Positions 37,185 through 62,097 of a stretch of DNA of 64,000 nucleotides are shown one piece after another. The first letter of the stretch is position 1; each line of letters starts with the position of its first letter. This stretch comes from a virus, in the IMG/VR virus record IMGVR_UViG_3300020176_000011, positions 1 through 64,000 of that record. One strand, 5' to 3'. The notes under the pieces are model-generated. The model was given only the letters and a program-made list of their open reading frames with translations, made no database searches and had not been told where the DNA came from. Position numbers and translations under genes: made by a program.

Positions 37185-37433
37185 ATGAAAACGAAGGATA
37201 TGGTGGCCATGACCGTCCGGATGCCGCCGGACTTTGCCGACCAGATCACGACCCGCGCCAGGCTCACTCGACGGAGCCGAAGCGCAGAGCTGATCCATCT
37301 GGCCAGTCAGACCCTCGACCGACAGGCTGCCGTCCTCAAGGCTGAGCAGCAGCGCGTGACGGAGCGTAACCAAGGGATACTGCAAGATATTGGTACGACC
37401 GAACCTCAGTTGTCACTAGGGGAAGAGCAGTAG
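37185..37433 (+). CDS. Arc/CopG-like ribbon-helix-helix DNA-binding protein
   Basis: AMTVRMPPDFADQITTRARLTRRSRSAELIHL; SD GGAG. Confidence 0.75.
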   Translation: MKTKDMVAMTVRMPPDFADQITTRARLTRRSRSAELIHLASQTLDRQAAVLKAEQQRVTERNQGILQDIGTTEPQLSLGEEQ

Positions 37434-47986: not shown

Positions 47987-50527
47987 ATGAGTATCATGGA
48001 CCAATTCATGTCTGGTAAGGCCGAAATCCTGCCGGAACACGACAAAGAAACGGGCGAAATCGTCGAAAAAGTCGTCGAAAACACCGAAAATCCGCTCGAA
48101 TTGAGCAAAATTCAGCATATTTTCGCTGAAACAGCGCCGTTTTACTTCGCTGCTGGCCTTCCGGTGATCCCGCTTGCACAGAGCAGCAAGCGCGCCATCC
48201 TGGACAACTGGGCCGCTTACCACGACCACATGCCGGACGAGGAGACGCGGGCGACGTGGCTCAAGAACTATGCCGATGGCAACATCGGACTGGTTCTAGG
48301 CTCGGCTTCCGGCGTTTCGATGATCGACATCGACACCGAGGACACGGAACTGGCCCAGGCCCTCATCGCCGTGCTGCCCGAGAGCCCGTGGTGCAAGATC
48401 GGCAAGAAGGGTGTCACCCTGGCGTACCGCTACAACGGCACGCGCTCGTTCCGCATCCGTGGCAAGGTCGGCGGAATGATCATCGAGCATCTGTCGTCGA
48501 AGACGCAGACCGTGATGCCGCCGTCGATCCATCCCGACACGATGCGTCCCTACGTGTCGAACTGCAATCTCTGGGAAGTGAAGTCGCAGCTTCCCTCGTT
48601 GCCGCTCGACATTGAGGAACAGCTTCGCACCATGCTGACGAAGCGTGGCATCGAGCTGTCGGCCCACGGCTACACCAAGCTGTCCGACAAGGTGTCGGTT
48701 GGCTCGCGGGACATCTCGATCACGCAGCGCGCGGGCATGTATGCCACGTTCGTCATGCGTGGTGAGAAGTCCCTGATCGACGCCGCCAATGAGCTACGCA
48801 CGAACATCTCGATGATGGTCGAGGATGTGGCTGGTGACCCGGTGGATCCCGAGAAGCACGTCCGCAACATGATCATGTTCATGAAGCGCGACGTGTTGGA
48901 GAAGAAGAAGCGCCTGCCGAAGGGTTGGGATACTGGCCTAACCGACGAGCAGAAGACCGAACTGGGTCTGGACTTCGGCCAGAACGAGGTCGAGTGGTCG
49001 GCGACTGAGATGATCGCCTACCTGAAGAACGAGTTCGAGACGAACCCGATTGAGGGCGAGGGCCGTATGCAGGCCATCGACCGTATCCTCGATCAGATGA
49101 AGAACACGAAGTCGCTCAACGACATCGACCAGGATCGGGTGTTGACCTACATCACCAACACCTCGAACATGAACATCAAGATCGGCACCCTGCGGAAGTC
49201 TCTGCGGGAGCGTCGGCAGGGCGAGATCACCGGTACGACTCACGGTCAGATCGCCGAGTGCTTGATCGAGGACTACAACAAGATCAGTCCCCTCCGCTAC
49301 TGGAACGACAAATTCTGGCGTTGGGGTGGATCGCACTGGGAGCGCGTGGAGAAGAACGAGATCCTCTCCAAGATCGTGAAGGACTACGGCGAGCTTCCCG
49401 CTGCGAAGCGGTGGTCCGACCACAACGGCATCTACGGCACGATGTCGGCTCTGTCTTCGGGCCAGCTGGCCGAGACTCGAGAGTTTGGCGTCAACTTCGC
49501 CAACGGGTTCCTGCTGCGGAACATGAAGCTAGTCGAACATTCACCCAGCCACGGCATGCTCTACACGCTGCCCTACCGCTATATGCCCGAGGACAGCCAT
49601 CGCTGCACCAAGTGGCTCGCGTTCCTGGAGAAGATCTGGGGAGAAGACGAGGACTATCTGGAGAAGGTGGAGTGTCTGCGCGACGTGATGTGCATCACGA
49701 TGTTCGGCCTCGGGACGTCGATGCAACGCGCCGTGTTGCTCTACGGCATCCCACACTCAGGCAAGTCGCAGATCATGGGCGTGATGGAGGGACTGATGGA
49801 CCCGTCCACCGTGTCGATGGTGTCTCCGAAGATGTGGGGCGACAAGTTCTCTCCCATCGGCATGCTGGACAAGCTCCTGAACGTGTGCGGTGAGTTGGGT
49901 ACGTCGCAGAAGATTGACGGTCCCAGCTTCAAGACCATCATCGCCGGTGAGCCGCTGGAAGTTCAGTACAAGGGCAAGCAGAACTTCGGTGCCCGCTTCA
50001 TCGCCACCCACTGGTTCGCCTCCAATCATGTGCCTCGGTCGGACGACGACACGGGTGGCTTCGTCCGTCGCTGGATCACGCTCACTTTCAACAAGAAGAT
50101 CACGGCGACCGAGAAGATCGACCGGTACTCGGAGATGTTGCTGGCCGAGGAGCGCGAAGCGATCTGCGCGTGGGTGATGGAGTCCGCGCACAAGTTCCAG
50201 AAGACGACGAACCCGACGTTCCCGAAGTCGCATCAGGCGTTCGTCCACGAGATGTTCAACATGCACAACTCGGTTCGGATGTTCTTCATGGATTCAGGCC
50301 TGGCTGTGGGCAAGTCTGAAGGCGAGATCGACGAACATTCCCTGCATCAGCGGTATTGGTCCTATTGCGTGCAGACGGGCCTGGCCCGGCCGGTGTCACA
50401 GTCGTTCTTCCGCAAGAAGGCTCGGGAGTTCGAGATGGACATCGGGTTCAAGATCGTGATGCGACCGAACAAGGACACCGGCACGGAGGAAGCCTTCTAC
50501 TCGGGCCTGTCGATGCGTCGGAAGTAA
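47987..50527 (+). CDS. Bifunctional primase-polymerase / D5-like SF3 helicase
   Basis: VIPL, NIGLVLG, IDID, TVMPPSIHPDT; VNFANG; Walker A GIPHSGKS; FKTIIAGE, ASNHVP, RRW. Confidence 0.9.
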   Translation: MSIMDQFMSGKAEILPEHDKETGEIVEKVVENTENPLELSKIQHIFAETAPFYFAAGLPVIPLAQSSKRAILDNWAAYHDHMPDEETRATWLKNYADGNIGLVLGSASGVSMIDIDTEDTELAQALIAVLPESPWCKIGKKGVTLAYRYNGTRSFRIRGKVGGMIIEHLSSKTQTVMPPSIHPDTMRPYVSNCNLWEVKSQLPSLPLDIEEQLRTMLTKRGIELSAHGYTKLSDKVSVGSRDISITQRAGMYATFVMRGEKSLIDAANELRTNISMMVEDVAGDPVDPEKHVRNMIMFMKRDVLEKKKRLPKGWDTGLTDEQKTELGLDFGQNEVEWSATEMIAYLKNEFETNPIEGEGRMQAIDRILDQMKNTKSLNDIDQDRVLTYITNTSNMNIKIGTLRKSLRERRQGEITGTTHGQIAECLIEDYNKISPLRYWNDKFWRWGGSHWERVEKNEILSKIVKDYGELPAAKRWSDHNGIYGTMSALSSGQLAETREFGVNFANGFLLRNMKLVEHSPSHGMLYTLPYRYMPEDSHRCTKWLAFLEKIWGEDEDYLEKVECLRDVMCITMFGLGTSMQRAVLLYGIPHSGKSQIMGVMEGLMDPSTVSMVSPKMWGDKFSPIGMLDKLLNVCGELGTSQKIDGPSFKTIIAGEPLEVQYKGKQNFGARFIATHWFASNHVPRSDDDTGGFVRRWITLTFNKKITATEKIDRYSEMLLAEEREAICAWVMESAHKFQKTTNPTFPKSHQAFVHEMFNMHNSVRMFFMDSGLAVGKSEGEIDEHSLHQRYWSYCVQTGLARPVSQSFFRKKAREFEMDIGFKIVMRPNKDTGTEEAFYSGLSMRRK

Positions 50528-51027
50528 GTGTGGCAAAAATGACACACTCAGGGCCTGTGGCAGAAATGTCACAGGCCTTTTGCTTGAACCGTTTTGGTTC
50601 AACTGAAATCCTCAAAATTTTCCCTAGTGAGTTTCGACCCTATCAAACTCCCTGGGTCCGTGACCCTAGAAAAAGTATACCCTCCTTCCTGAGCCTTAGT
50701 TTTATTGTAGGTCAGCCTTAGTATTGGTCGCCCTTCAAAGTCGCGTTTCATGTCGATTATTGTTGTCTCAATATATCCAAGGTGTATTGTCTCCCTATGT
50801 TCACTTCTTACTTTCCTCTCGCTACTTCCTCCCAGGGCCTCGCGGGGCCTGTGGGAGAGGTGCGTCCGGATTTTGGGATGCGGAACATGGTCGGCGCTGC
50901 CAAATTTGGCAGCGCCGTCCACTGCCAAATTGGCAGTGCGGACGGCACGCATGGTGCGGCCGGTACCGCTCACGTCCACTGCCAAATTGGCAGCGGGCAA
51001 GGCAACGCAAACGGAAAGGCTAATCAA

Positions 51028-51774
51028 ATGACTGCCACCACGCAGGAAGCGGGCAAGGTCAACGCGAGCAACGTGACCCTTAACCCGGTCAAGGTCTACA
51101 GCGACGAGCAAGAGGTTTCGTTCCGCGCGGCCGACGCCGCTGCCAATTTGGCAGCGAACGGCGCTCCCATCGCTTTCGTGGCGGCGCTGCTCGTCGCGGA
51201 CAATTACGCAAGCGGCGTCATCTTGGAGCCGCGCGGCAAAGACCCGGTCCGGGTCGCGCGGCTCGCCAAGGCCAAGGAAGCCTTTGGCAATGAGCGGACG
51301 CCGTTCCGGTTCTGGGCCACGGCGCTGGCCTATCGCATCAAGGCCAGCACGGACGTCGAAACGGCCGTTTCGATGGCCACGAAAGACGACAAGGGCAAGC
51401 CCATCAAGACGGTAGAGGCCCAAGTCGCCCGCGCGACCGGCCTTCTGGTCCGCATGATGGCCTCGCGCGGCTATCACACCATGCACGGCCTGTCCATCGG
51501 CCTTGGCCTGTCCAAAGACCCGGCCGACGGCAAGGGCAAGGGCAAGGGCAAGGCCGATAACTCGCCCAAGTCGGGCGAGGGGGAAGGCGCGGCGGACGGC
51601 GGCAAGGTCAAGGTCGCGGACGCGGCGGCGGACGTGCGGACGGCGCTGATCTGTGAAGCCCTCAAGGCTGGCGGTTTCTCGCCCGAACAGCACGCCCTCA
51701 TCGCGGCGGCGGTTCTGGCTGCCAAGCCGGCGGATGTGACGGCCGACGCGGAACCGGAAAAGGTCGCGGCCTAA
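51028..51774 (+). CDS. Orphan Ala/Lys-rich protein, probably first early gene
   Basis: GGAAAGG SD then ATG at 51028; good GC3 bias; GKGKGKGK low-complexity segment. Confidence 0.65.
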   Translation: MTATTQEAGKVNASNVTLNPVKVYSDEQEVSFRAADAAANLAANGAPIAFVAALLVADNYASGVILEPRGKDPVRVARLAKAKEAFGNERTPFRFWATALAYRIKASTDVETAVSMATKDDKGKPIKTVEAQVARATGLLVRMMASRGYHTMHGLSIGLGLSKDPADGKGKGKGKADNSPKSGEGEGAADGGKVKVADAAADVRTALICEALKAGGFSPEQHALIAAAVLAAKPADVTADAEPEKVAA

Positions 51775-51869
51775 CGCGGCACGGCAAGCCCACTGCCAAA
51801 TTGGCAGTGGGCTTGCCCCTCGCATAATCGCCCGGCAATCCGGCCGGACGATTATCAGAGGGAAACGCT

Positions 51870-52034
51870 ATGGACGCGATGACGGTTTTATTCGGGCTTC
51901 TGGCCCTGTCCATCCTATTCCTGCCGGTTTGCTTCTGGCTCGATAGCCGGGCGAGCCGGTCGCGGCGACAAATGCGCGCCCATCGTGCCCGCCAGCGTCG
52001 CGCGGCTGCCTTCTACCGGCGGGTCTGGTCATGA
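51870..52034 (+). CDS. Small membrane protein with basic tail (not in ORF track)
   Basis: SD GAGGG; MDAMTVLFGLLALSILFLPVCFWL... Confidence 0.5.
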   Translation: MDAMTVLFGLLALSILFLPVCFWLDSRASRSRRQMRAHRARQRRAAAFYRRVWS

Positions 52035-52189
52035 GCCGGGAAAGGCGCTTCTACAGCGACCTTTGCCGGACGTTCCTCGCCTATTGTCGCGAGGCCCGGA
52101 AAGTCGCGCCCGATGACGTGGACTTGCTCAAGGTCCATCAATCGAGGCTGGCCAAAGCCCGGTCAAACCGGAACCGGGCCACCGCCTGA
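52031..52189 (+). CDS. Small hypothetical protein (not in ORF track)
   Basis: ATGA-coupled to the previous ORF. Confidence 0.4.
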   Translation: MSRERRFYSDLCRTFLAYCREARKVAPDDVDLLKVHQSRLAKARSNRNRATA

Positions 52190-52359
52190 CCCAGGATCTG
52201 GCCCACGGGCCAGGGCCTGCGCCCGGATCGGGCGCAGGCGCGTCTATGTGTCATTTCTGCAACAGTCCCCAGGCGCAGGCCCTGGCCCAGGGACTGTTGC
52301 AGAAATGTCACATTATTGGACCCGGCCTCTCCGGGTTTCGAAACTTTTGGAGGTGAATT

Positions 52360-52872
52360 ATGGCTAGGCCCAAATTCAGGCGTGGTAAATCCCGACAGGT
52401 CCCCGCCATACCCGTCTACAAGCCCCTCCGGAGGCCCGCACAGCTGCAAGAGGACCGTCTGGCTCCTGTGGTGGCCGACGGCATCCACAGGCCTCTCAGC
52501 GAGGCCGGAATGGGCACTGGCGGCGGTGAATGGGGCTTCCATGCCGCGAACGGTCGGAGGCCCAAGCCGATCCGCCATCTGATGGCCTATGAGGATCAGG
52601 CCCGGCGTGAGCTTCAGCTGATCGAGCTGGAAGGCTGGATCAGGGATTGTCTGATCACGTCGGTCGAACCGGGCATGGGTCGCGAGCTGCCCCACGTTCG
52701 GATTTACCATCAGGGTGCCGTCGTGGGTCGTCGCCCGCGTGTGTTCCCCGAGCGGGAGGTCCGTAGGGCCAAGCCCGAGGTCGCCAAGGTGGCACCGGTC
52801 CGGAGGCAGCCCCGCGTGCTGCGGGCCATCGCCAGGGATGTGACCATGGGCGGGACCGTGTACTCGATCTGA
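52360..52872 (+). CDS. Hypothetical basic protein
   Basis: Strong SD GGAGGT. Confidence 0.55.
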   Translation: MARPKFRRGKSRQVPAIPVYKPLRRPAQLQEDRLAPVVADGIHRPLSEAGMGTGGGEWGFHAANGRRPKPIRHLMAYEDQARRELQLIELEGWIRDCLITSVEPGMGRELPHVRIYHQGAVVGRRPRVFPEREVRRAKPEVAKVAPVRRQPRVLRAIARDVTMGGTVYSI

Positions 52873-53525
52873 GTCCCATGGTAGGGCTGTGGGCGCAGGC
52901 CCTGGCCCGACCAACACAACATCTAGTGAGCGGGCCGTATAAAACTTTTCTTACTTGAACACGTAAGAAAAACAGAGGGGTATACACATTAAATGTGGGG
53001 TTATGTGGTAAAAATGTCACAGTACCCAAAAACTATTTTCTATACGTATTAAGTTAAAAAAGTTTTATACAGTCCGCGCCACCACCATTCATGGTGTGTT
53101 GCGCAAATGTCACGCCATATCTGGTGACAGCGGACCAAGCGCCTTTTGAAATTGTTGTCGCTCACGTAGCGCATCTTCCAGCACTCGGCTCGACCGAGTG
53201 CTGAAACATGCACTATAGGTGTGTCTTTCTCGATCTGGAGGTCGTCTCGAACAACTTGCTGGCCTACTGCCAAATTGGCAGTAACGCTCCAGCGACCCAC
53301 TAGGTATAGAGATAGGACAGCAACACTGACCAATTCGGGCCAGTGCCTACCGCTGGGCCAAATGGCCCTGAACCACTGCCAATTTGGCAGTAAAGCCAAG
53401 CGGCTGGCACCGGCCCACGGATACGGCCACGGCCACGAAGCTGAGACAAATGCTGGGTGTAAACGTCGCCAACACCCCGGATTTGGAACCGACCCGGCGA
53501 CAACAGCAGACGAAAGGAACCGACT

Positions 53526-53762
53526 ATGGCTCAGATCAACCGAGTGAACCTCGTGGGGATTTCCCGCACGATCCCGTGGACCAATTCCAAGGGCACGCCT
53601 CTCCCGAGGGTCGGCGGCGAGGTCATCAGCCTGTACGAGAACCTGACCGAGGAACAGGCCCTGATCCGGTGCGAAGAGCTGAACAGGGAGCATCGTTCGA
53701 CCGATTTCACGGCGACGATCATCCCCCAGGTCGAGTACCCCTCGTACTACTACACCAACTGA
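53526..53762 (+). CDS. Hypothetical protein
   Basis: SD AAAGGA. Confidence 0.6.
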   Translation: MAQINRVNLVGISRTIPWTNSKGTPLPRVGGEVISLYENLTEEQALIRCEELNREHRSTDFTATIIPQVEYPSYYYTN

Positions 53763-53908
53763 TGAGCAGGACCGACTCCAACACCGAGAGCGCAAGCTGA
53801 AGCTGCGAAACCTCCGTGTCCAAACTCAGGATGTGAAGCCTGCGTCAAAAGCAGACTACACATTCATGCGTCGCGACGAATTCTTCAACCCCGACAATTG
53901 AGGCACCC

Positions 53909-54118
53909 ATGTTGACCCTCAACCCGAAACAGCTGCGTCGTGCCCGCGACGGCGCTGCTGCCAAATTGGCAGTAGCTCAACTGGCCCTCACAAACGCTGA
54001 AAAGCGGCTGGCCATTTCCAAGTCCGCCTCGGCTCGTGAGGAATACGACGAGGCCAACCGACAGGTGATCGCCGCGACCACCGTCAAGCGGCTGATCGAA
54101 ATCGATGCGCGCTCTTAG
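53909..54118 (+). CDS. Hypothetical coiled-coil protein (contains a palindrome copy)
   Basis: SD GAGG. Confidence 0.55.
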   Translation: MLTLNPKQLRRARDGAAAKLAVAQLALTNAEKRLAISKSASAREEYDEANRQVIAATTVKRLIEIDARS

Positions 54119-54323
54119 CAGCATCGCCCTCGCCATCATCGCACCCTTCATTGGGTGGGATGCTGCCATCTACTGGCATGATCTCGTCTTCAGCTACACA
54201 GGCCATGGAGTGTATGCTGAGCTGATGACGTTCTTCGCCATCATCGCCATGCTGGCGACCTTCGTGGTCGCTCAGTGCAGGTTGTGGAAACCGGAACTGC
54301 ATCGGTTCTTAAACCCGACCTAA
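54105..54323 (+). CDS. Small two-TM membrane protein
   Basis: Two hydrophobic segments. Confidence 0.45.
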   Translation: MRALSSIALAIIAPFIGWDAAIYWHDLVFSYTGHGVYAELMTFFAIIAMLATFVVAQCRLWKPELHRFLNPT

Positions 54324-54508
54324 TTCTCTTTCCCGAGTTGTCGTAATTCCCGGTCCTGCGCCGCCCTCAAAAGCCACAGACTACTGGGTATAGTCGGCCA
54401 GCGGAAAGAGATACGCCCACACCTCGCACAACCTAGACCTCCGTGGTGCCTATCCACAGGTCACACATCATCGTGCTTGGTGTGGGCGTACTTTATTTGG
54501 AGGTAATC

Positions 54509-54694
54509 ATGTCCCATTACGAGCGTCACATTCGCCGGATGGACACTTGGCGTCTTTGTGCTGAGCATGTCTACTATGTGGACCTTGTTCGCCGTGATCG
54601 TCGTGTATTCGGCATGATGGACCATCTCAGCAGCGCACGGGCTGCAGCCTGTTGGCGTGAAATCGTTCGTCGTTCAAACGGAGGCTTGTCATGA
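54509..54694 (+). CDS. Hypothetical protein
   Basis: SD GGAGGT. Confidence 0.5.
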   Translation: MSHYERHIRRMDTWRLCAEHVYYVDLVRRDRRVFGMMDHLSSARAAACWREIVRRSNGGLS

Positions 54695-55020
54695 AGACCG
54701 ATTTGTATTTCGAGGTCCACATCACCCTCGATCCGATCATGCCCGAGTCCGAGATGGGCATTCTTCTGCGCTCGCTTACGGTCCATCACGGGTTCCGTGT
54801 GGCCAAGTTCGTGATGAACGAACAGGACAGCTTCCTGACCACGCGTGGCACCGATTACGACGATGTCGTGCGTCGGACGAAGAACATGATCGAGAGCCTT
54901 CGTCTGTTCAACTTCCCGATCCGGCGCTACAAGCTGGAGAACACGATCCTGGACACCAAGGCCACGAACACCGATCCGCTCGGGTGCCTGACGTCCAGTA
55001 TGCCCGTCGGCGGCAACTGA
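54691..55020 (+). CDS. Hypothetical protein
   Basis: Coupled ORF; YFEVHIT...RRYKLE. Confidence 0.6.
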   Translation: MKTDLYFEVHITLDPIMPESEMGILLRSLTVHHGFRVAKFVMNEQDSFLTTRGTDYDDVVRRTKNMIESLRLFNFPIRRYKLENTILDTKATNTDPLGCLTSSMPVGGN

Positions 55021-55466
55021 TGCGCCAGATCGCGGACGATCAAAGCCTGGGTCCCTTTAGTAGAGGCGAACACGCTACGATCACCGAGGTCTTCAACCAA
55101 TACAGGCTCTCCACGCGAGGTCGCAAAGCCGCGTGGAAAGTTATCAGCCTCGACTGGTATCTAGGTCGAACAGGCAGGTTCTACGCCTATCTTCGGGCGC
55201 ATGAATTCGGTTCGGCTGAGAAACCCGGCAAATATGTGTGGGTGACAATCACCTACATGAACAACAGTCGTGACTCGATTGCTCAACCCAACATGGTTGA
55301 AGCCACCAAGTATGCGATGAGCAACATCAGCTACAGCGGTGGCAAGGTGCGTCGGGTCGAAATCGAAACCGAGAAGGACAGCAAACGTGCTGTATGGGAT
55401 GCATCATGGCCAGAAGTCGTGGGTACTGGAAGCGCAAGGATAGCAGGCGAGCCCGCCGCATCCTGA
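55020..55466 (+). CDS. Hypothetical protein
   Basis: TGATG coupling. Confidence 0.5.
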   Translation: MRQIADDQSLGPFSRGEHATITEVFNQYRLSTRGRKAAWKVISLDWYLGRTGRFYAYLRAHEFGSAEKPGKYVWVTITYMNNSRDSIAQPNMVEATKYAMSNISYSGGKVRRVEIETEKDSKRAVWDASWPEVVGTGSARIAGEPAAS

Positions 55467-55798
55467 ACCGTTCGCTCGATGTCATCACCCAGATCGGTAC
55501 TGCCAAATTGGCAGTGCTGATGACGGAAAACATGTCGGGCTCGTCGCTGATCGGCAACCGTCGCGAGTTGAGCCGGATCGACAAGATGACCCAGGAAATC
55601 CTGGCGCGTGATGCCCGTCAACAGCAAGAGCTGGATGATTACTTCGATGCTCTCTACGAGCAGGAAGCTGCCCTTTACAAGGAAGAGGCAGCTCAAGAAT
55701 ACCGGCAGTACCTGAGCGAACTGCAGGACGATTATGGCGATGAGGTGTGGGACAGTCGCTATGATGAACTCGAATCCCACTATGATTGGAACTACTGA
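55406..55798 (+). CDS. Hypothetical protein, basic N-terminus and acidic Tyr-rich C-terminus (contains a palindrome copy)
   Basis: Fills the gap between neighbouring early genes. Confidence 0.5.
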   Translation: MARSRGYWKRKDSRRARRILNRSLDVITQIGTAKLAVLMTENMSGSSLIGNRRELSRIDKMTQEILARDARQQQELDDYFDALYEQEAALYKEEAAQEYRQYLSELQDDYGDEVWDSRYDELESHYDWNY

Positions 55799-55799
55799 C

Positions 55800-56237
55800 A
55801 TGACACGAGACGAACTGGTCAGGGTCCTTGAGACTACCTTGAGCATGGGTGGGCACAATATCGCCCTCCGTGCTGAGGTCGTCCGACAGATCCTGGAGGT
55901 GCTGAAGCTGCCGGTGTTTCCGGCGACGCTCACTCCCGAGCTGAATGATGTGATCAGGAGCGCTCGGGCGAACACCAACTATCGGCAGAACGAGGGGCTG
56001 CATCGGGACATCCTGAAGCACCTGATGCCCAAGCCGCTCACGATGTTCGTGTTCTACGCGACGCAGATGAACAGCTACAACCAGCCCAACGTGCCGAAAA
56101 TCTTTCGGCACAAGACCAAGGAAGGTGCCGACAAGAACCGCGACGCTGCGATCAGGTTGTCGCCGGACTGCTACATCAACGTCAGCGAGGTGATCGAAGT
56201 GCCCCGCGACGTCAACGATCCGCCGCTCGGCTCATGA
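55800..56237 (+). CDS. Paralog family member 1
   Basis: Shares P..M..(F/Y/W)YA...NVS...EVP with the next two ORFs. Confidence 0.65.
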   Translation: MTRDELVRVLETTLSMGGHNIALRAEVVRQILEVLKLPVFPATLTPELNDVIRSARANTNYRQNEGLHRDILKHLMPKPLTMFVFYATQMNSYNQPNVPKIFRHKTKEGADKNRDAAIRLSPDCYINVSEVIEVPRDVNDPPLGS

Positions 56238-56668
56238 GCAAGCTGATCGCCAATCTGGACGCCATCATCCAGAGCGCCAAGAATGATGGGCGAACGACAT
56301 CGTTCGTCACCATCGAACTGCTGGAGCAGATTCGGGTGAAGCTGCTCGATCCCACAATGCCGATGGCGATGCCTGTCGAGCTGCACGAGCATATCCACAC
56401 GGCTCGTCGCAATTCGATGACCGACCCGGCGGGTTCGAGGCTTCTGTACAGCACCATTCGTCAGGCTCTGATGCAGCCTGTGACGATGTTCATCTACTAC
56501 GCGACCCTCAAGCACTCGGGTCAGATGAAGATCTACAAATATCTCAAGAAGGAAAGTGCCGAATCGGCTGCACAGTCCTGTCGCGATGCCACCAACACAT
56601 GGTCCAACGTGAGCCCTGTGATGGAAGTCCCGTTCGAGAATTCGGACAATCACGTCAACAAGCACTGA
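56234..56668 (+). CDS. Paralog family member 2
   Basis: PVTMFIYYA...NVSPVMEVP. Confidence 0.65.
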   Translation: MSKLIANLDAIIQSAKNDGRTTSFVTIELLEQIRVKLLDPTMPMAMPVELHEHIHTARRNSMTDPAGSRLLYSTIRQALMQPVTMFIYYATLKHSGQMKIYKYLKKESAESAAQSCRDATNTWSNVSPVMEVPFENSDNHVNKH

Positions 56669-56679
56669 GGAACATCATC

Positions 56680-57132
56680 ATGGAAAAGCGTGAAATCGTC
56701 GTCGAACTCGGCCGCAAGATCAAGGATGCCGAATCCCGTGGTCGCTCCGAGCTGAGCATCTGCGTCGAAGGTGCGAAGTCCGGCCTGAAGCTGCTGTCCG
56801 AGCCGACGCTCGGCGTGCTGCCCAAGGTGCCGACGTCCGAGATGCGCCAGGTCATCCGCGAGGCGATGCAGTCCGGCACCAGCATGGACATCTACAACGC
56901 CATCTACAAGGAGCTGAACAAGCCGAAGCCGATGTGGGCGTGGTACGCCGAGGTCAATCCGACCGGCCGGACGTCGCCGACGTGGGAAGTGCGGATGTTC
57001 CGCTACGACAACAAGGGCGATGCCGAGAGCAACCGCACCGGCGCCATCGGCATCACGCACAGCTATCGCAACGTCAGCCCGCTGCTGGAAGTCCCCAGCG
57101 ACGGCAAGGAAGGCCAGAACCAGTACGCGTAG
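56680..57132 (+). CDS. Paralog family member 3
   Basis: PKPMWAWYA...NVSPLLEVP. Confidence 0.65.
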   Translation: MEKREIVVELGRKIKDAESRGRSELSICVEGAKSGLKLLSEPTLGVLPKVPTSEMRQVIREAMQSGTSMDIYNAIYKELNKPKPMWAWYAEVNPTGRTSPTWEVRMFRYDNKGDAESNRTGAIGITHSYRNVSPLLEVPSDGKEGQNQYA

Positions 57133-57159
57133 GGTTCCCATCAACCGAAGGAGATTGTC

Positions 57160-57360
57160 ATGAACCACTTCACTGCTGCGAACGAAGCGTTCGAGCGGAA
57201 GCTCAAGATCACCCGCAAGGGAGGCGACAAGAAGAAGATCGCCGAACTCATCGCGGGCCGAAACGAGTTCGTTCGCAAGTACGCGGACAGTTTGCGTCTC
57301 GCCGACAAGCGTGACGCCGCCGTGCGCATCCTCCAGCAGGACTGCCACCATGTGGCATAG
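57160..57360 (+). CDS. Hypothetical protein
   Basis: SD AAGGAG. Confidence 0.55.
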   Translation: MNHFTAANEAFERKLKITRKGGDKKKIAELIAGRNEFVRKYADSLRLADKRDAAVRILQQDCHHVA

Positions 57361-57601
57361 TGGCATGGAAGCCTTCTTCGGCTGGACCCTCGTGGTCCTG
57401 ATGTGCATCGCTGGGCTCCACTGGATCTACGAGTTCGTCTGGAAACTCTGGTCGCTCCTCGTCCAGATCTGGTTCTGGTCGGACTTCAACAAGACCCAGC
57501 AGTACGAGTTCGAGCAGTCGCTGGAGAAGCGCAACAGCTGGTTCTTCATGTGGACCGTCGTGCTGTTCGCGATGGTGTGGATCGTCAGGAACTTCATCTG
57601 A
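57350..57601 (+). CDS. Small Trp-rich membrane protein
   Basis: Two hydrophobic helices. Confidence 0.55.
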   Translation: MWHSGMEAFFGWTLVVLMCIAGLHWIYEFVWKLWSLLVQIWFWSDFNKTQQYEFEQSLEKRNSWFFMWTVVLFAMVWIVRNFI

Positions 57602-57668
57602 CGCTTCGTTAGACCACAGGGCTACTGCCAAATTGGCAGTAGCCCTGACCTGTAACGAGGAGATCAAC

Positions 57669-58238
57669 ATGAACATGAATATGGACGAGCTGATCGCAAA
57701 CAGCTTCATGGATTTCCATCAGAAGGATTTCCATTATCTCTGCGTGCGTCGGTCGCCGACGATGACAGAGAAGTTCTACTTCTTCGACGGCGACGTGAGT
57801 AAGCTGCCCGAGGTGGTGGCTCCCCACGATCATCGCTACCAGTTTCTGACCAAAGCCGTGCGCGGCACGGTCGAGAACCGGGTCTACAGCCGCGACTATC
57901 TGCCCTATGCGGAGTGCGCGACGTTCCAGCGGTTCTCGTATATGACTCCGCTCAACGGCGGCAACGGTTTCACTTGGGCTGCCGAAGAGAAGCTCTACCT
58001 GCAGAGCAGCGAAAGGTATTGGAATAGGTCGTACTGGATGGCGGCCGACGACATTCACACGATCCAGATCATCGAACCGGGCACCATCCTCAAGCTGTAT
58101 CAGTTCGAGGACGTTGTGCCGATCAACAAACCTACCAGCACCTGGATGCTGGACCGCGAACCGCCGAACCTGTCGGGCCTGTACCGCAAGCCCACGCCCG
58201 ACGAGATCAATGGCTTGCTCAAGAGATTGGAGACGTGA
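57669..58238 (+). CDS. Cupin-like protein
   Basis: PHDHRYQF...RG..EN and IHTI metal-binding cupin pattern; SD GAGGAG. Confidence 0.55.
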   Translation: MNMNMDELIANSFMDFHQKDFHYLCVRRSPTMTEKFYFFDGDVSKLPEVVAPHDHRYQFLTKAVRGTVENRVYSRDYLPYAECATFQRFSYMTPLNGGNGFTWAAEEKLYLQSSERYWNRSYWMAADDIHTIQIIEPGTILKLYQFEDVVPINKPTSTWMLDREPPNLSGLYRKPTPDEINGLLKRLET

Positions 58239-58239
58239 C

Positions 58240-58488
58240 ATGGACCTCAATCACACCGACATCACCGGCAAGACCGGTCAGGAGTTCGTCTGCCTCATCG
58301 GCAAGACCTACCGTCACAATGCCCGCTCGAAATACTACAAGATCGTGGGCGTGGTGTATCTCGGCGAGATGGACCTGTGGGGCCTGAGCTATCGCGAGAA
58401 CAACAGCGAGGTCATGCACGTTCGCAGCCACGTCAACTTCTTCGGCACGCAGGCTGGCAGCGAAGACCTGCGCTTCGAACAGGTTTGA
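58240..58488 (+). CDS. DUF1653-like protein
   Basis: YRH...Y.IVG...E...Y...VR...FF...RF. Confidence 0.5.
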   Translation: MDLNHTDITGKTGQEFVCLIGKTYRHNARSKYYKIVGVVYLGEMDLWGLSYRENNSEVMHVRSHVNFFGTQAGSEDLRFEQV

Positions 58489-58490
58489 GT

Positions 58491-58937
58491 ATGGTGACCC
58501 GAGTGGACAACCAGGCCTACATGCAGATGACGCAGGCTCAGCGTGACGCCTATCACGACAAGCGTCGTCGCGAACAGAACGACGTGGATCGGAAGCGTCT
58601 GCTGAAGATCCCGATGTTCTTGACGCGCGAGTTCACCGACGCGCAAGGCCAGGTCCAGTTCCTGATCATCAAGCGGCACGTCAACAAGAGCTGCGCTGGA
58701 CTGTTCACCATTCACCAGAAGATTCCGAGCTTCTGGCAGCATCATTGGGCGCACTATCAAGCGCCCGGTGTACAGGGCAAATACGTCGGCTTCTATTTCG
58801 AGAAGGGTCACTACTGCGACGAGTACCCACCGACGATCCTCCAGGACCTGCACGACTACGCGCATGGTGACCTGAAGCCGTTGGAGGACCGCTACGGTGG
58901 TCAGTTCGACCAGTCGCGCTTTCAATGGGAGCTGTGA
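58491..58937 (+). CDS. Hypothetical protein
   Basis: In-operon ORF with phage codon usage. Confidence 0.55.
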   Translation: MVTRVDNQAYMQMTQAQRDAYHDKRRREQNDVDRKRLLKIPMFLTREFTDAQGQVQFLIIKRHVNKSCAGLFTIHQKIPSFWQHHWAHYQAPGVQGKYVGFYFEKGHYCDEYPPTILQDLHDYAHGDLKPLEDRYGGQFDQSRFQWEL

Positions 58938-58938
58938 A

Positions 58939-59262
58939 ATGTCGCTCGATGTGTGGCTGATGAAGACGCAGCCGACCGAGGTGTTCAGTGCGAACATCAC
59001 GCACAACCTCAACACGATGGCCGAGGAAGCTGGTGTCTACCAGCACCTGTGGCGGCCGGAAGAGATTGGCATCAGCAAAGCGGGTGACCTCATTCTTCCT
59101 CTGACCGAAGCGGTCAAGAAGATGGAGGAGAACCCGGTGCGTTTCCGTAAGCACAACGCACCGAATGGCTGGGGCACCTATGAAGGGCTGCTCAAGTTCA
59201 TCAAGAACTATCTGGCCGCCTGCATCGAGCATCCGGACGCTGAGATCGGAGTGTCGCGATGA
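58939..59262 (+). CDS. Conserved phage hypothetical protein
   Basis: MSLDV..ANITHNL..MA..AG.Y..LW.P...NGWGTY. Confidence 0.7.
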   Translation: MSLDVWLMKTQPTEVFSANITHNLNTMAEEAGVYQHLWRPEEIGISKAGDLILPLTEAVKKMEENPVRFRKHNAPNGWGTYEGLLKFIKNYLAACIEHPDAEIGVSR

Positions 59263-59498
59263 GTTGGCAACCGATGCACACGGCTCCCATCGCCAAGGAT
59301 GACGATGGTGAGCCACAATACATTCTCGCCGCCGACGAAGACGGCGTGGTCGAGAAAGTCTTTTGGGGCGATTGCGCCGAAGGCATGGGTGGCGATGATC
59401 CCTGCAATACGTGGTGCATCGCCCACAGTCTCAACGACGAGCGCGGTGGTTGGAGTACCCACCTCGCCGTCAAATGGCAACCGCTTCCGGAGGCGTAA
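59259..59498 (+). CDS. DUF551-like protein
   Basis: WQPMHTAP...WQPLPEA. Confidence 0.55.
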   Translation: MSWQPMHTAPIAKDDDGEPQYILAADEDGVVEKVFWGDCAEGMGGDDPCNTWCIAHSLNDERGGWSTHLAVKWQPLPEA

Positions 59499-59744
59499 AT
59501 GAGCATCGCATCTTGGTGGAAAGAGTTCACCAAACCTGATCCTGAGATCGAGATGCAAGTCGCTCGGTATCAGGTCCACAAAGGCGCGGGCTATCTGATC
59601 TCTGCCTACGACCACATGGTTCGCAGCGGTCGTAACATGCGCAACTTCATCGTGTCCGACTGGACGGTGAAGAGCCACACCGATGGATACTGGCAAGTTA
59701 GCCTGCATTTCATCGGACGCAGGATGATGGAGGGCGACCTGTGA
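59499..59744 (+). CDS. Hypothetical protein
   Basis: SD GGAGG, coupled. Confidence 0.5.
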   Translation: MSIASWWKEFTKPDPEIEMQVARYQVHKGAGYLISAYDHMVRSGRNMRNFIVSDWTVKSHTDGYWQVSLHFIGRRMMEGDL

Positions 59745-59983
59745 AGTGCCAGTGGGAACCCGCAGACATCTGGTGCGGTCGGGTCACCAAGTACAGCGAC
59801 GGTACGCAGGAGAAGTGGATGATCGGCTACGACGCCACCATTCGCGACAGTCGCAAGCACTACTGCCTGATCAGCCTCAACGACGGCATGATCATGCTCA
59901 AGAATTCGACGGCCGAAGAGGTGTGCAAGCATCTGACCGAGGCCAAGCTGGAGCCCGACGAGATCGTCAATAGGAGGAACTGA
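59741..59983 (+). CDS. Hypothetical protein
   Basis: GTGA-coupled, SD GGAGG. Confidence 0.5.
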   Translation: MKCQWEPADIWCGRVTKYSDGTQEKWMIGYDATIRDSRKHYCLISLNDGMIMLKNSTAEEVCKHLTEAKLEPDEIVNRRN

Positions 59984-60534
59984 TGGAAGAACCGTGGTCG
60001 ATCCGTCTCATTCACGAGACGTTGTGTGAGAGCGTGTTCACCGAACTCAAGCTGGTGATCCCGTTCGAGAAGCGTCCCGACGCTCCACGCTACGAGTGCT
60101 GGATGATGCGCGACACTCTCGCGCCCTACACCTACGGACGCAATCGTGGTGAGCGTACCTATCAGGCCAACGTCATGCCCGATCTGGTCAAGAAGATCGG
60201 CAAGTCGGTTCGTGAAATCCTGGGTGGCGACCGTGAGCCCGAGGGCTGCTTCGCCAACCTGTATCGCGATGCTCACGACCACCTCGGCTGGCATGCCGAC
60301 GCCAGCGACATGATCGACCACGAGTACCCGGTCGTCAGCGTCAGCTTCGGCGACCGTCGCCGCATTCAGTTCCGTCCGAACACCGAGCAGGACAAGGTTA
60401 CCGAGCTGTGGATGGAGCCCGGCAGCATCACCGTGATGCCCGCTGGCTTCCAGCACACGCATCAGCACCAGATCCCGAAAGAGGGACGCGTCATCGGCGA
60501 GCGCGTCAGTTTGACATATCGCTGGCTCAAGTAG
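59983..60534 (+). CDS. alkB: AlkB-family 2OG-Fe(II) dioxygenase (ALKBH2/3-like)
   Basis: NLYRDAHDHLGWHAD, SVSFG..R, M..GFQ..HQH.IPK, RVSLTYR. Confidence 0.88.
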   Translation: MEEPWSIRLIHETLCESVFTELKLVIPFEKRPDAPRYECWMMRDTLAPYTYGRNRGERTYQANVMPDLVKKIGKSVREILGGDREPEGCFANLYRDAHDHLGWHADASDMIDHEYPVVSVSFGDRRRIQFRPNTEQDKVTELWMEPGSITVMPAGFQHTHQHQIPKEGRVIGERVSLTYRWLK

Positions 60535-60543
60535 GAGACGACA

Positions 60544-61500
60544 ATGGCAATCCGGAAAAACGACATCGGCAAGCGGGTGAAGTTCATCAGCTCCATCGAC
60601 AGGACGACGACCAGGTTCGGTCGGCTGATCACCTATGGTGCGGGCCACTCGGCCGTCATGATCGAGAAGGACGGTCTGATGCCCGCCGAACGGTTCGAGG
60701 AACGCTCGCTGGTCGAGACGGCCAAGCTGAACCTCGCCGAAGTTCAGATCACGAAGACCGACATCGGCCAGACCTTCATGTGGAACCCGCCCGCCCCGGC
60801 GACCTCGTGCAAGGTGCAGCTGATCGAACTGCGCGTCCATCCGTCCGACGAACGCATCACGTCGGCGCTCGTGCAGGCCAACGGCCGCCAGTTCGTTGTC
60901 TGGGCCAAGCACCTCCAGAAGGAAGACGACGCCACCCCGGCGCTGCCAATTTGGCAGGACATCAGCACCGCCCCGAAGGATCGTCCGATCCTGCTGATCA
61001 ATGACAAGGGTCATATGTCCACCTGCGAATGGCGGAAGGATATCTATGGCCTCAATTGCTGGCAGATTGCCAGTAGCACCACCTACGCTCAGTTCTTCGG
61101 AGCCTACATGTGGTCTGAACTCTTGGCACCGCCGCCGAAGCCGAAGCCCAAGTCGCCGCGTGAAGTCGCCGAGGAGAAGCTGCTCGCCGCCTACAACGAC
61201 ACGATCAATGTCGCGAACAACACGGCCAGCATGATCCGCAAGGCGAAGCAGAACTACATCGCCGCGCAGAACGCCTACTTCGTCGAGGTCCAGAAGCAGA
61301 ACGGCAAGCCCGCCAACTGGCTGATCAAGGAAGGCAAGGTCTACCTCATGATCGACTCTCCGTTCAGCCACTTCTCCAGCGAGAAGCTGGCCGAGTGGGT
61401 GGTCAAGGACCCGGCCAAGTATGCGGCTGCCGCCGCCGACCGGATGCTCTGGCTGAGCCAGCAGCGTCACTACGAGCGGTTCAAGCAGGGCAACCTGTGA
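60544..61500 (+). CDS. Multidomain hypothetical protein with internal DUF551-like segment (contains a palindrome copy)
   Basis: WQDISTAPKDRPILL; SD AGGAG. Confidence 0.6.
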   Translation: MAIRKNDIGKRVKFISSIDRTTTRFGRLITYGAGHSAVMIEKDGLMPAERFEERSLVETAKLNLAEVQITKTDIGQTFMWNPPAPATSCKVQLIELRVHPSDERITSALVQANGRQFVVWAKHLQKEDDATPALPIWQDISTAPKDRPILLINDKGHMSTCEWRKDIYGLNCWQIASSTTYAQFFGAYMWSELLAPPPKPKPKSPREVAEEKLLAAYNDTINVANNTASMIRKAKQNYIAAQNAYFVEVQKQNGKPANWLIKEGKVYLMIDSPFSHFSSEKLAEWVVKDPAKYAAAAADRMLWLSQQRHYERFKQGNL

Positions 61501-61686: not shown

Positions 61687-62097
61687 ATGCTCAAGAAATT
61701 TCTGATCGGCGCTGCTGCCCTCCTGCTGCTGGGCTGCAACGAAGACGCCAAGGTGGCCGGTGACAACCTCACCAAGGCCGCCGACAACTTCGAAATCACG
61801 AGACGCATTCTCTTCGTGAACACCATCACCGACAAGTACCTGCTGGAGATCGTCGGCCGGTGCAGTTTCGGACCGTCCGGTAGTACGCCGAAAACGGTCA
61901 ACGTCATCTGTAAGGTCGGTCCGACCGACTACAAGAAGCATTCCATGGTGATGGGCGACAACACCGTCGTCGTCGTGGAACACCTGAAGGCGACCAATGT
62001 CTCGGTCGACTTCTACCGCGTCACGTTCAAGCCGTCCGCCATCATCCCCGACATCGACATCCGAGGACCGGGGCTGGACCAGGAGAGCAAGAAATGA
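61687..62097 (+). CDS. Conserved phage lipoprotein
   Basis: Lipobox LLGC; ADNFEI.RRI.F.N.ITD.YLL.I.G.CS...YKKH...Y.V.FKP..IIPDID. Confidence 0.75.
   Translation: MLKKFLIGAAALLLLGCNEDAKVAGDNLTKAADNFEITRRILFVNTITDKYLLEIVGRCSFGPSGSTPKTVNVICKVGPTDYKKHSMVMGDNTVVVVEHLKATNVSVDFYRVTFKPSAIIPDIDIRGPGLDQESKK

Follow-up and report, generated by a model that had tools for sequence, protein, structure and literature searches.

Palindromes repeated many times along a genome are known in a few phage groups, and their function is open. The closest described system is that of the Cluster O mycobacteriophages (Corndog and relatives), which carry 34 copies of the 17-bp palindrome TGTTCGGNNNCCGAACA; its authors inferred a dimeric regulator, the function being unknown (PMC4351075). 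In Cluster A mycobacteriophages, stoperators are reported to be asymmetric sites bound by a monomeric two-domain immunity repressor of the L5 gp71 type (PMC9283540). The promoter early stem-loops (PeSLs) of T4-type phages and the start-associated sequences (SAS) and extended SAS (ESAS) of Cluster K mycobacteriophages have a lineage-specific consensus and a role that is partly unknown (PMC2839356, PMC4122927, PMC11373665). Here we describe an array of twelve copies of the perfect palindrome CTGCCAAWTTGGCAG, 15 bp long in all copies but one, in the IMG/VR record IMGVR_UViG_3300020176_000011, the genome of a JWF/Seuss-like siphovirus from salt-marsh metagenomes. The record is 80,084 bp long, with an estimated completeness of 98%, and the window analysed is the stretch formed by its bases 1 to 64,000.

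A pattern scan of the 64,000-nt window found 10 exact matches to CTGCCAAWTTGGCAG and none more at up to two mismatches, against 0.00 exact matches in dinucleotide shuffles. An eleventh copy, at 50897-50912, is the 16-bp variant CTGCCAAATTTGGCAG with one additional central base, and a twelfth, at 65810-65824, lies beyond the window edge; the remainder of the record is devoid of copies. The centre reads AAATT in seven copies, AATTT in four and AAATTT in one. All 12 are letter-perfect and no degenerate copy was found, which fits an all-or-none recognition of sequence and not of structure alone. The array starts 370 bp past the stop codon of the primase gene and ends before the DNA-metabolism genes, so that every copy is confined to 15 kb 3' of the primase gene, amid the ORFan genes of an arm that we take to be early from its gene content and from its relatives. 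Its total span of 14,928 bp, or 18.6% of the record, holds 12 of 12 copies (p ~9e-9 for the other 11 landing in the same span by chance). Counted from the primase end, the gaps between successive copies are 25, 57, 161, 653, 1474, 109, 582, 1542, 2125, 3318 and 4867 bp, hence widening with distance (Spearman rho 0.90). The original prediction for this DNA had listed the ten exact copies and the variant, judged them beyond chance, noted both centre orientations and described confinement to this arm with thinning towards the right; the scan of the full record bore out all of these points and added the single exact copy at 65810 that had been missed.

Seven of the 12 sites are intergenic and five lie within open reading frames (ORFs), in varied frames (51140, 53958, 55500, 60943 and 65810). 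Three are found in the leader of the first gene of the arm, called gene A hereafter (51028-51774, plus strand): the variant at 50897-50912, whose flanks give five further complementary pairs, and two copies with centre A at 50922-50936 and 50979-50993, the latter immediately 5' of the ribosome-binding site and 34 nt before the start codon. Gene A itself contains the site at 51140-51154 (centre T, read A-A-N-L-A-A) and is followed, 19 nt past its stop codon, by that at 51793-51807, the tip of a longer hairpin with ten additional complementary pairs. The sites at 53267-53281 and 53376-53390 (centre T) share a 650-bp non-coding stretch 5' of the gene starting at 53526; in a wastewater relative, the DNA between them is replaced by 22 other letters and both sites are kept. 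Further along, the sites at 53958-53972 and 55500-55514 lie within ORFs 53909-54118 and 55394-55798, respectively, and the site at 57625-57639 falls between a stop at 57601 and a start at 57669, 29 nt before the ATG, as the tip of an imperfect hairpin with 26-nt arms (57606-57658). The last copy in the window, at 60943-60957 (centre T), is read L-P-I-W-Q within a 318-aa ORF (60544-61500). Site flanks are weakly palindromic (YR...YR), with longer stems at 50897, 51793, 55500 and 57625.

The right arm of site 51793, TTGGCA, followed after 16 nt by CATAAT, is the top sigma-70-like match in 46.5-64 kb. Promoter-like sites in these 17.5 kb number 4 observed for 5.2 expected, and 51793 is the only palindrome site involved. 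None of the 12 sites coincides with any of 18 terminator-like matches, and their flanks have no T-run. A sigma-54 reading of TTGGCAG was rejected, as TTGC at the right spacing occurs only at 51793, where by eye it is a by-product of the long hairpin; in the whole record TGGCAY-N5-TTGC occurs 0 times forward and once in reverse.

A comparison with related phages, which the original prediction had proposed, revealed a distinct palindrome for each lineage, always in this arm. One close relative is a 13-kb contig (L141), whose primase is 94% identical and which carries eight copies of the same palindrome 3' of the primase gene. These persist in flanking DNA that has diverged past BLASTN alignment: the two genes preceded by tandem sites are the same in L141 as here, and the site within ORF 55394-55798 is kept at the homologous position (12834), the position homologous to 51140 being without copy. 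A primase-alignment scan of IMG/VR gave 78 related loci, in which palindromes were discovered de novo. About 30 lineages have a perfect palindrome of 14-21 bp of their own in 3-12 copies, all 3' of the primase gene but for a handful of stray calls (L339, L356); lineages known from IMG/VR alone account for at least 25 of them. The sites of nine whole genomes are limited to 12-25 kb 3' of that gene, with gaps that widen in 9 of 9 (rho 0.60-1.00). The palindromes of other lineages are dissimilar to one another, and they differ even between phages with 79-84% identical primases (L309 vs L361 and L305; L321 vs L323).

Among cultured phages, the nearest have primases 38-42% identical: JWF and 2-1 of Achromobacter, Lumi of Xylophilus and Seuss of Caulobacter. 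Phages of Acinetobacter, EAb13 among them, stand further apart. The palindrome of the salt-marsh phage is absent from all five. JWF and 2-1 have GGTTCGT-N-ACGAACC, Seuss has TTTACCT-N-AGGTAAA and Lumi has TTACT-N5-AGTAA, whereas a scan with 6-nt arms found no multi-copy palindrome in EAb13. In JWF, the palindrome centre (GGTTCG-TAA-CGAACC) is often the stop codon of the upstream gene, for example at record positions 77578 and 71201, and a conserved TTCAAGGATCAATCATG follows 3', the repeated unit being really stop-palindrome-Shine-Dalgarno (SD)-start. In JWF, 2-1, Seuss and Lumi, the copies are restricted to the direct terminal repeat and the adjoining early arm. This repeat is 1466 bp long in JWF, 1748 bp in Seuss (PMC4591317), 2298 bp in Lumi (PMC9959647) and 2177 bp in EAb13 (PMC10508131). 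In the cultured relatives the repeat, mapped or evident, begins a few hundred bases past the primase gene. The original placement of the array at the start of the early arm is supported, and in these relatives that arm begins inside a mapped repeat. The open-access papers on Lumi, Seuss and TCUP2199 contain no mention of these palindromes.

The symmetry of the palindromes extends to the centre in 18 of 27 lineages. In 12 of them the arms meet at a single central base; the other six have complementary inner positions or an even length, as in AAAAGTGCAATTGCACTTTT; overall, 52 of 85 inner pairs are complementary, compared to 25% expected by chance. Such innermost pairs are impossible in a hairpin, and selection for central symmetry thus speaks for duplex DNA recognised by a protein of two-fold symmetry. 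This agrees with the dimeric protein suggested in the original prediction, and the sites look like targets of a sequence-specific dimer in this phage as in its relatives. The partner is very probably encoded by the phage, most likely within the swapped module, given that primases remain 79-84% identical where palindromes differ and that host regulators switch specificity more slowly. Taken together, the sequences point to duplex DNA sites for a two-fold symmetric, phage-encoded protein, and not to an RNA hairpin or a site for a host factor.

We favour, at about even chances, the explanation that the palindromes form an operator array read by a phage-encoded dimer and controlling early transcription. 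The array on double-stranded DNA would mark a module of small, fast-evolving host-takeover genes starting just past the primase gene; because this module starts within the direct terminal repeat in the cultured relatives, it is present there at both genome ends. The target would be early transcription by the host RNA polymerase. The dimer would occlude the leader of gene A, with its three sites, and its promoter, as well as the promoter of the next unit, where site 51793 overlaps the -35-like hexamer, and the downstream sites would act as roadblocks between and inside early genes, leading to a timed shut-off of the early class. Protein binding, the identity of gene A as binder and the repressive effect are what we infer from these patterns; were gene A the binder, it would be autoregulated.

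Gene A is the best candidate for the site-binding protein, and within the operator-array explanation we put its being the binder at somewhat below an even chance. In most lineages, the first ORF past the first site is 210-300 aa long, with one site shortly before its start and another just past its stop; the counterparts of gene A in the cultured relatives are JWF gp002/gp069, Seuss gp003 and Lumi_003. The site-bracketed gene A of the salt-marsh phage encodes such a protein, a helical ORFan of 248 aa ending in ...KVAA. These first-gene proteins are undetectable to BLAST across groups and have in common their position, their size and a C-terminal Ala-Ala tail. Their C-termini, in about 25 lineages, are mostly Ala-Ala or similar small non-polar residues (...KVAA, ...AVTA, ...AKAA, ...QIAA, ...LLAA). 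An Ala-Ala C-terminus resembles ssrA-like ClpXP degradation tags, and by this analogy the tail suggests a short-lived protein. At similar core distance, gene A is 56-98% identical in pairs with the same palindrome versus 30-54% in pairs with different ones. A symmetric homodimer is predicted by modelling: the two-copy prediction reached an ipSAE of 0.85 against 0.00 for the best of three controls, with at least 68% contact agreement between runs and a partner pLDDT (predicted local distance difference test) of at least 67. In the calibration of the tool, 20 of 30 proteins with a solved pair structure attain this mark, as does 1 of 23 whose structure is a single chain, counts that are only rough for gene A because a shallow 5-row alignment made for this analysis was used. 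Dimerisation is necessary for a palindrome reader and far from sufficient. The pI of gene A proteins varies from 4.9 to 9.4 and net charge is uninformative. Among 1.84 billion proteins, homologues numbered four by word search and six by profile search, and neither search linked gene A to a named family.

Several points weigh against this explanation. No consistently placed sigma-70 promoter was found 5' of the first site across 17 lineages, the mean best score of 7.97 being a marginal excess over the 7.28 +/- 1.1 of background windows, and simple repression does not specifically predict the polar gradient conserved in nine genomes. AlphaFold models gene A as a bundle of helices, with moderate confidence (mean pLDDT 61.5); neither a helix-turn-helix (HTH) nor a ribbon-helix-helix (RHH) is recognisable in it, and no fold match is significant: Foldseek on the PDB returned nothing at E <= 0.001 (best 0.6), and the best hits of a wide VIA search were TetR-like helical bundles at Z 4.9, under the tool's noise level for helical proteins. 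No early-arm protein matched a DNA-binding family in Pfam and PHROG scans, which covered most plus-strand-arm ORFs and some structural-arm proteins; integrase, repressor and HTH families were similarly absent from the ORFs scanned, mainly those of the plus-strand arm, by profiles that a novel fold could escape. The correlation of gene A with the palindrome could be explained without binding by physical linkage in a swapped module. Even with an unchanged palindrome, gene A is 72% identical in L319/L320 (primase 100%) and 56% identical between this phage (G000) and L141 (primase 94%); divergence at this pace would equally be expected of an anti-host protein that is simply linked to the sites. 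Finally, the stop-palindrome-SD-ATG layout, in which about 80% of the sites of JWF, 2-1, Seuss and Lumi lie 2-35 nt 5' of a start codon, would also suit a role at the RNA level.

A single sequence-specific DNA-binding protein is recognisable, an Arc-like RHH protein encoded at 37185-37433 on the plus strand, antisense within the structural module. The original prediction had named both this protein and the orphan gene at 51028 as candidate binders; the latter, gene A, remains the best one, and the former is disfavoured. Its residues at the positions that we take to be the base contacts of Arc (Q9/N11/R13) are A/T/R in G000, JWF, 2-1, L305, L309, L351 and L361 despite their differing palindromes, it was undetected in 10 of 17 near-complete relatives, and no palindrome lies near its gene.

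An RNA-level element, which we regard as improbable, would consist of a short hairpin in early polycistronic transcripts, directly 5' of the ribosome-binding site, to which an RNA-binding protein or nuclease specific to the phage binds or at which it cuts. It would be a translational operator, a processing site or a stabiliser, comparable to RegA/RegB control or to the RNase III sites of T7 early mRNA. The placement before start codons in the four cultured relatives speaks for it, as do the 34 and 29 nt that separate sites 50979 and 57625 from theirs, the right arm of the Seuss palindrome that itself provides the AGG of the ribosome-binding site, the TAA stop often provided by the JWF centre, the long additional flank complementarity at 51793, 57625, 55500 and 50897, and the co-directional transcription of the arm that holds all sites. 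On the contrary, the symmetry reaches innermost pairs that no hairpin could form in 18 of 27 lineages, even-length palindromes included, and five of 12 sites are deep within ORFs and remote from starts. Plus-strand G-U pairs are not in excess in the flanks, with 9 G-U versus 22 A-C among 160 positions, both near chance, and there was no match to an Rfam family, CRISPR direct-repeat families included at E <= 5. Proximity to start codons may merely reflect where any fixed 15-mer fits in a packed genome, namely the gap between a stop and the next ribosome-binding site. Far less probable still is a site or decoy for a host factor, which would titrate or recruit a host protein such as a global regulator, or mimic a CRISPR repeat. 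The hairpin of the type I-F CRISPR repeat, the target of Cas6f, likewise has CUGCC-N5-GGCAG as its stem; JWF and 2-1, both phages of Achromobacter xylosoxidans, have one palindrome in common, and unrelated phage contigs of clearly differing G+C content carry CTGCCA-N3-TGGCAG in many copies or in tandem clusters. The likeness to the I-F repeat is limited to the 5-bp stem CTGCC/GGCAG; the palindromes of other lineages resemble neither this repeat nor each other, and the unrelated motif carriers (G001-G005, L079, L145, L152) have no BLAST-detectable protein in common with this phage (E < 1e-4). A search of 185,579 bacterial and archaeal species genomes for the 17-mer gave scattered single hits across bacterial phyla and no multi-site locus among the matches listed, which, along with the switching of palindromes between close relatives, argues against the host-protein decoy that the original prediction had entertained.

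Two other explanations relate to the ends and the shuffling of the genome. The array might serve DNA entry, end protection, concatemer processing or packaging instead of transcription control, for instance as a T5-like first-step-transfer stop-and-go signal or ratchet, or as terminase or partition-like loading sites. The T5 module combines DNA entry in two steps with a long direct terminal repeat in which pre-early genes are located; of these features, the terminal repeat is seen in the relatives. We consider this explanation unlikely and nevertheless keep it as a serious rival, because the polar gradient is not specifically predicted by repression. The arm of the cultured relatives begins in a mapped repeat, 1.4-2.3 kb long, in which gene A and 2-4 sites are located, the first site lying 130-240 bp inside the physical end. 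Measured from this end, the gradient in density is seen again in nine genomes; gene A enters first whichever end leads, and its conserved Ala-Ala tail, by its likeness to ssrA-like tags, suggests a short-lived protein. However, the sites run 12-25 kb past the 1.4-2.3-kb repeat, no small-terminase-like, ParB-like or end-binding family was detected in the scanned proteins, and a packaging signal is normally present once and conserved along with the terminase; in this clade the palindromes switch despite a conserved terminase. Very unlikely, in turn, is the view that the palindromes serve mainly as substrates on which illegitimate or short-homology recombination reshuffles the ORFan early genes, in the manner of PeSLs and without any dedicated binder. 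The arm is hypervariable: the small early genes of this phage are without BLAST-detectable homologue in JWF, Lumi, Seuss and EAb13, downstream gene families are common to at most a few of the 78 loci, some JWF/2-1 homology blocks terminate at sites, the wastewater relative has other DNA between sites 53267 and 53376 and keeps both, and PeSLs are repeated regulatory motifs at ORFan boundaries (PMC2839356, PMC4122927). PeSLs are nonetheless composite, with a stem-loop of loose stems and a sigma-70 promoter, whereas one of 12 copies here has a promoter-like partner and all are letter-perfect, and recombination alone explains neither the two-fold symmetry, nor the lineage-specific sequence, nor the polar gradient. 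Hairpin promoters of the N4 type, which require a virion RNA polymerase able to read DNA hairpins, were rejected: one of the two giant virion proteins is a tape-measure protein, the other a J-like tail fibre, and the proteins scanned include no member of an RNA polymerase family.

The operator array read by a phage dimer may also be extended to a hitherto undescribed specificity system, a combination that we hold to be doubtful as a whole. In virulent JWF/Seuss-like siphoviruses, a short-lived, ClpXP-tagged gene A protein of a new fold would read a lineage-specific polar array on the first-entering DNA and time early shut-off, stepwise entry or both, and the two would rapidly co-diversify through competition between co-infecting relatives. 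Such a system would be comparable to immunity, with gene A encoded in the terminal repeat and pre-early, and the competition would take the form of cross-repression or exclusion of phages with the same palindrome.

The surrounding genome is divided into two transcriptional blocks. A minus-strand block at 13.6-46.7 kb encodes the large terminase, the portal, the capsid, a tape-measure protein of 1860 aa, a J-like tail fibre and proteins for lysis. From 46.9 kb, the plus-strand arm continues across the end of the record to 13.5 kb; it contains a Prim-Pol/D5 primase-helicase followed by about 17 kb of small ORFans, beyond which lie RtcB, a DNA ligase, an SNF2 helicase, DNA polymerase A, a Dda-like helicase, SbcCD, ThyX and ribonucleotide reductase. 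The primase-helicase gene (47987-50527, plus strand) is a conserved landmark directly 5' of the palindrome arm in all relatives. It is followed on the plus strand by a G+C-rich hairpin and TTTT (50549-50582), which by eye would be an intrinsic terminator that the terminator scan did not list. The top of this hairpin is one of six copies of an imperfectly symmetric 18-bp repeat, TGTGGCAGAAATGTCACA (motif B), which spans 50529-53114 and occurs nowhere else in the record (50529, 50556, 52247 in inverted orientation, 52295, 53004 and 53097). Between the hairpin and the first site lies an A+T-richer non-coding stretch (50583-50896), inside which the similarity to L141 ends, at about 50688; by analogy with JWF, Seuss, Lumi and EAb13, this stretch should hold the boundary of the terminal repeat and one or more promoters of gene A.

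Several neighbouring features deserve mention in their own right. An arginine-rich 170-aa gene (52360-52872) is surrounded by perfect 19-bp inverted repeats (52206-52224 and 52891-52909) and preceded by two inverted copies of motif B that form a hairpin with 29-nt arms (52246-52313); this might be a small cassette that moves or inverts, or else a structured element with a regulatory role. The tandem ORFs 55761-56237, 56234-56668 and 56680-57132, without family match, have repeated DNA segments in common at a spacing of 428-464 bp and are likely paralogues, judging from these repeats. At 61687-62097, a gene encodes a 136-aa protein of the Pfam family Phage_VG64 (mycobacteriophage gp64 family, E 2e-43). 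It is the sole source of nucleotide-level matches to cultured phages, namely Cluster A mycobacteriophages, whose counterparts are termed recombination directionality factor (RDF) in some records. In the middle-gene block, the RtcB RNA ligase adjoins the ATP-dependent DNA ligase (L142 8854-10962; record 70854-72962), a pair that suggests repair of tRNA or RNA damage inflicted by the host. The phage is present in salt-marsh metagenomes and also, as assembled contigs, in libraries labelled RNA; one contig of such a library is 40 kb long, which indicates that DNA was present in it.

Palindromes resembling this one also occur outside the clade. Three unrelated contigs of low G+C (41-45%), IMG/VR 3300035670_000546, 3300034073_004006 and 3300036770_006768 (L135-L140; 15-29% complete, genomes of about 140 kb), have 40-51 copies of CTGCCA-N3-TGGCAG, mostly in pairs exactly 29 bp apart, and no BLAST-detectable protein in common with the salt-marsh phage. 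They also have 19-22 sigma-54-like motifs TGGCAY-N5-TTGC, up to about ten of which lie 22-46 nt 5' of a palindrome pair, and may be phages with many sigma-54-type promoters. Other unrelated viral contigs contain tight clusters of 3-5 TACTGCCAWWWTGGCAGTA-like sites, 22-78 bp apart, in an operator-like layout (L079 4944-5013; L152 2141-2210; G004 (L132) record 23782-23983; L145 11136/11405), and this type of half-site may be read by a widespread, unrecognised protein family. Finally, among the matches listed, the 17-mer ACTGCCAAWTTGGCAGT recurs in metagenome-assembled genomes (MAGs) of Bacteroidota and Rhodothermota, including about ten Paludibacteraceae MAG contigs, and is found at least four times in one Rhodothermales MAG contig (L180, L208, L251, L259); it may be there an unrelated palindromic repeat family of the host.

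The pattern of one palindrome per lineage across a whole clade appears to be new, as do the confinement to the arm beside the terminal repeat, the conserved density gradient and the site-bracketed first gene. The clade is an unusually clean natural experiment, in which about 30 lineages with a conserved core genome each have a different perfect palindrome in the same arm and with the same polarity. The hosts of four cultured members are tractable (Achromobacter xylosoxidans for JWF and 2-1, Caulobacter crescentus for Seuss, Xylophilus for Lumi), and the related Acinetobacter phages have the same terminal-repeat layout. If gene A were the partner, its fold would be new among DNA-binding proteins, and virulent terminal-repeat phages, some of them under consideration for therapy, would be shown to follow a regulatory or exclusion principle of this kind. 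In practice, the motif of each lineage also serves as a marker for phage typing and for finding the early arm and the genome ends in metagenomic contigs.

Among known systems, the conserved inverted repeats (CIRs) of phage phiC31 are 17-bp palindromes located at many places of the early region and all bound by repressor c. The array resembles them as a multi-copy palindrome in the early region, one phage repressor there reading every copy; Pfam PF25746 (Phage_Repressor_c) gave no match at E <= 0.05 for gene A or any scanned ORF, and repressor c is a weak language-model neighbour of gene A, with a score of 0.81 that the tool rates as often due to chance. With KorB-OB and ParB-parS, a dimer reads palindromes of 13-16 bp, about a dozen copies of which are clustered on one side of the replicon, and silences at a distance. 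The array is similar to these in its dozen or so perfect palindromes clustered on one side, and no ParB/KorB-like (ParBc) domain was found in the scanned proteins.

Stoperators share with the array the many copies of a short site, often in short intergenic gaps, and a specificity that diversifies among relatives; a phage protein bound to them blocks elongation as well as initiation (PMC9283540, PMC6550527). The analogy drawn in the original prediction therefore stands for the distribution and fails on the features of the sites. Stoperators are reported to be asymmetric, read by a monomer, genome-wide and found in temperate phages, whereas the sites here are perfect palindromes, with centre A in seven and T in four, and occupy one arm. 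PeSLs are likewise repeated motifs at the boundaries of small ORFan early genes (PMC2839356, PMC4122927), and the SAS/ESAS of Cluster K are short motifs immediately 5' of start codons (PMC11373665). Nevertheless, a PeSL comprises a stem-loop of variable stem and a -35/-10 promoter, in contrast to the bare and exact 15-bp palindrome found here, whose sole promoter-like partner is at 51793 (TTGGCA-16-CATAAT), and SAS are asymmetric 13-mers that contain the ribosome-binding site (PMC11373665).

The array is most similar to the Cluster O palindrome and fits its descriptive class: both have invariant inverted arms (7 bp in Cluster O), many copies that are intergenic as well as within ORFs, a centre without orientation bias and no counterpart in the host, the latter being taken here from the lack of any multi-copy bacterial locus among the matches listed. 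The Cluster O sites, on the other hand, are spread genome-wide and have one sequence across all five members, whereas the array described here occupies a single arm and thins out from the terminal-repeat end, with a palindrome proper to each lineage and a first gene bracketed by sites.

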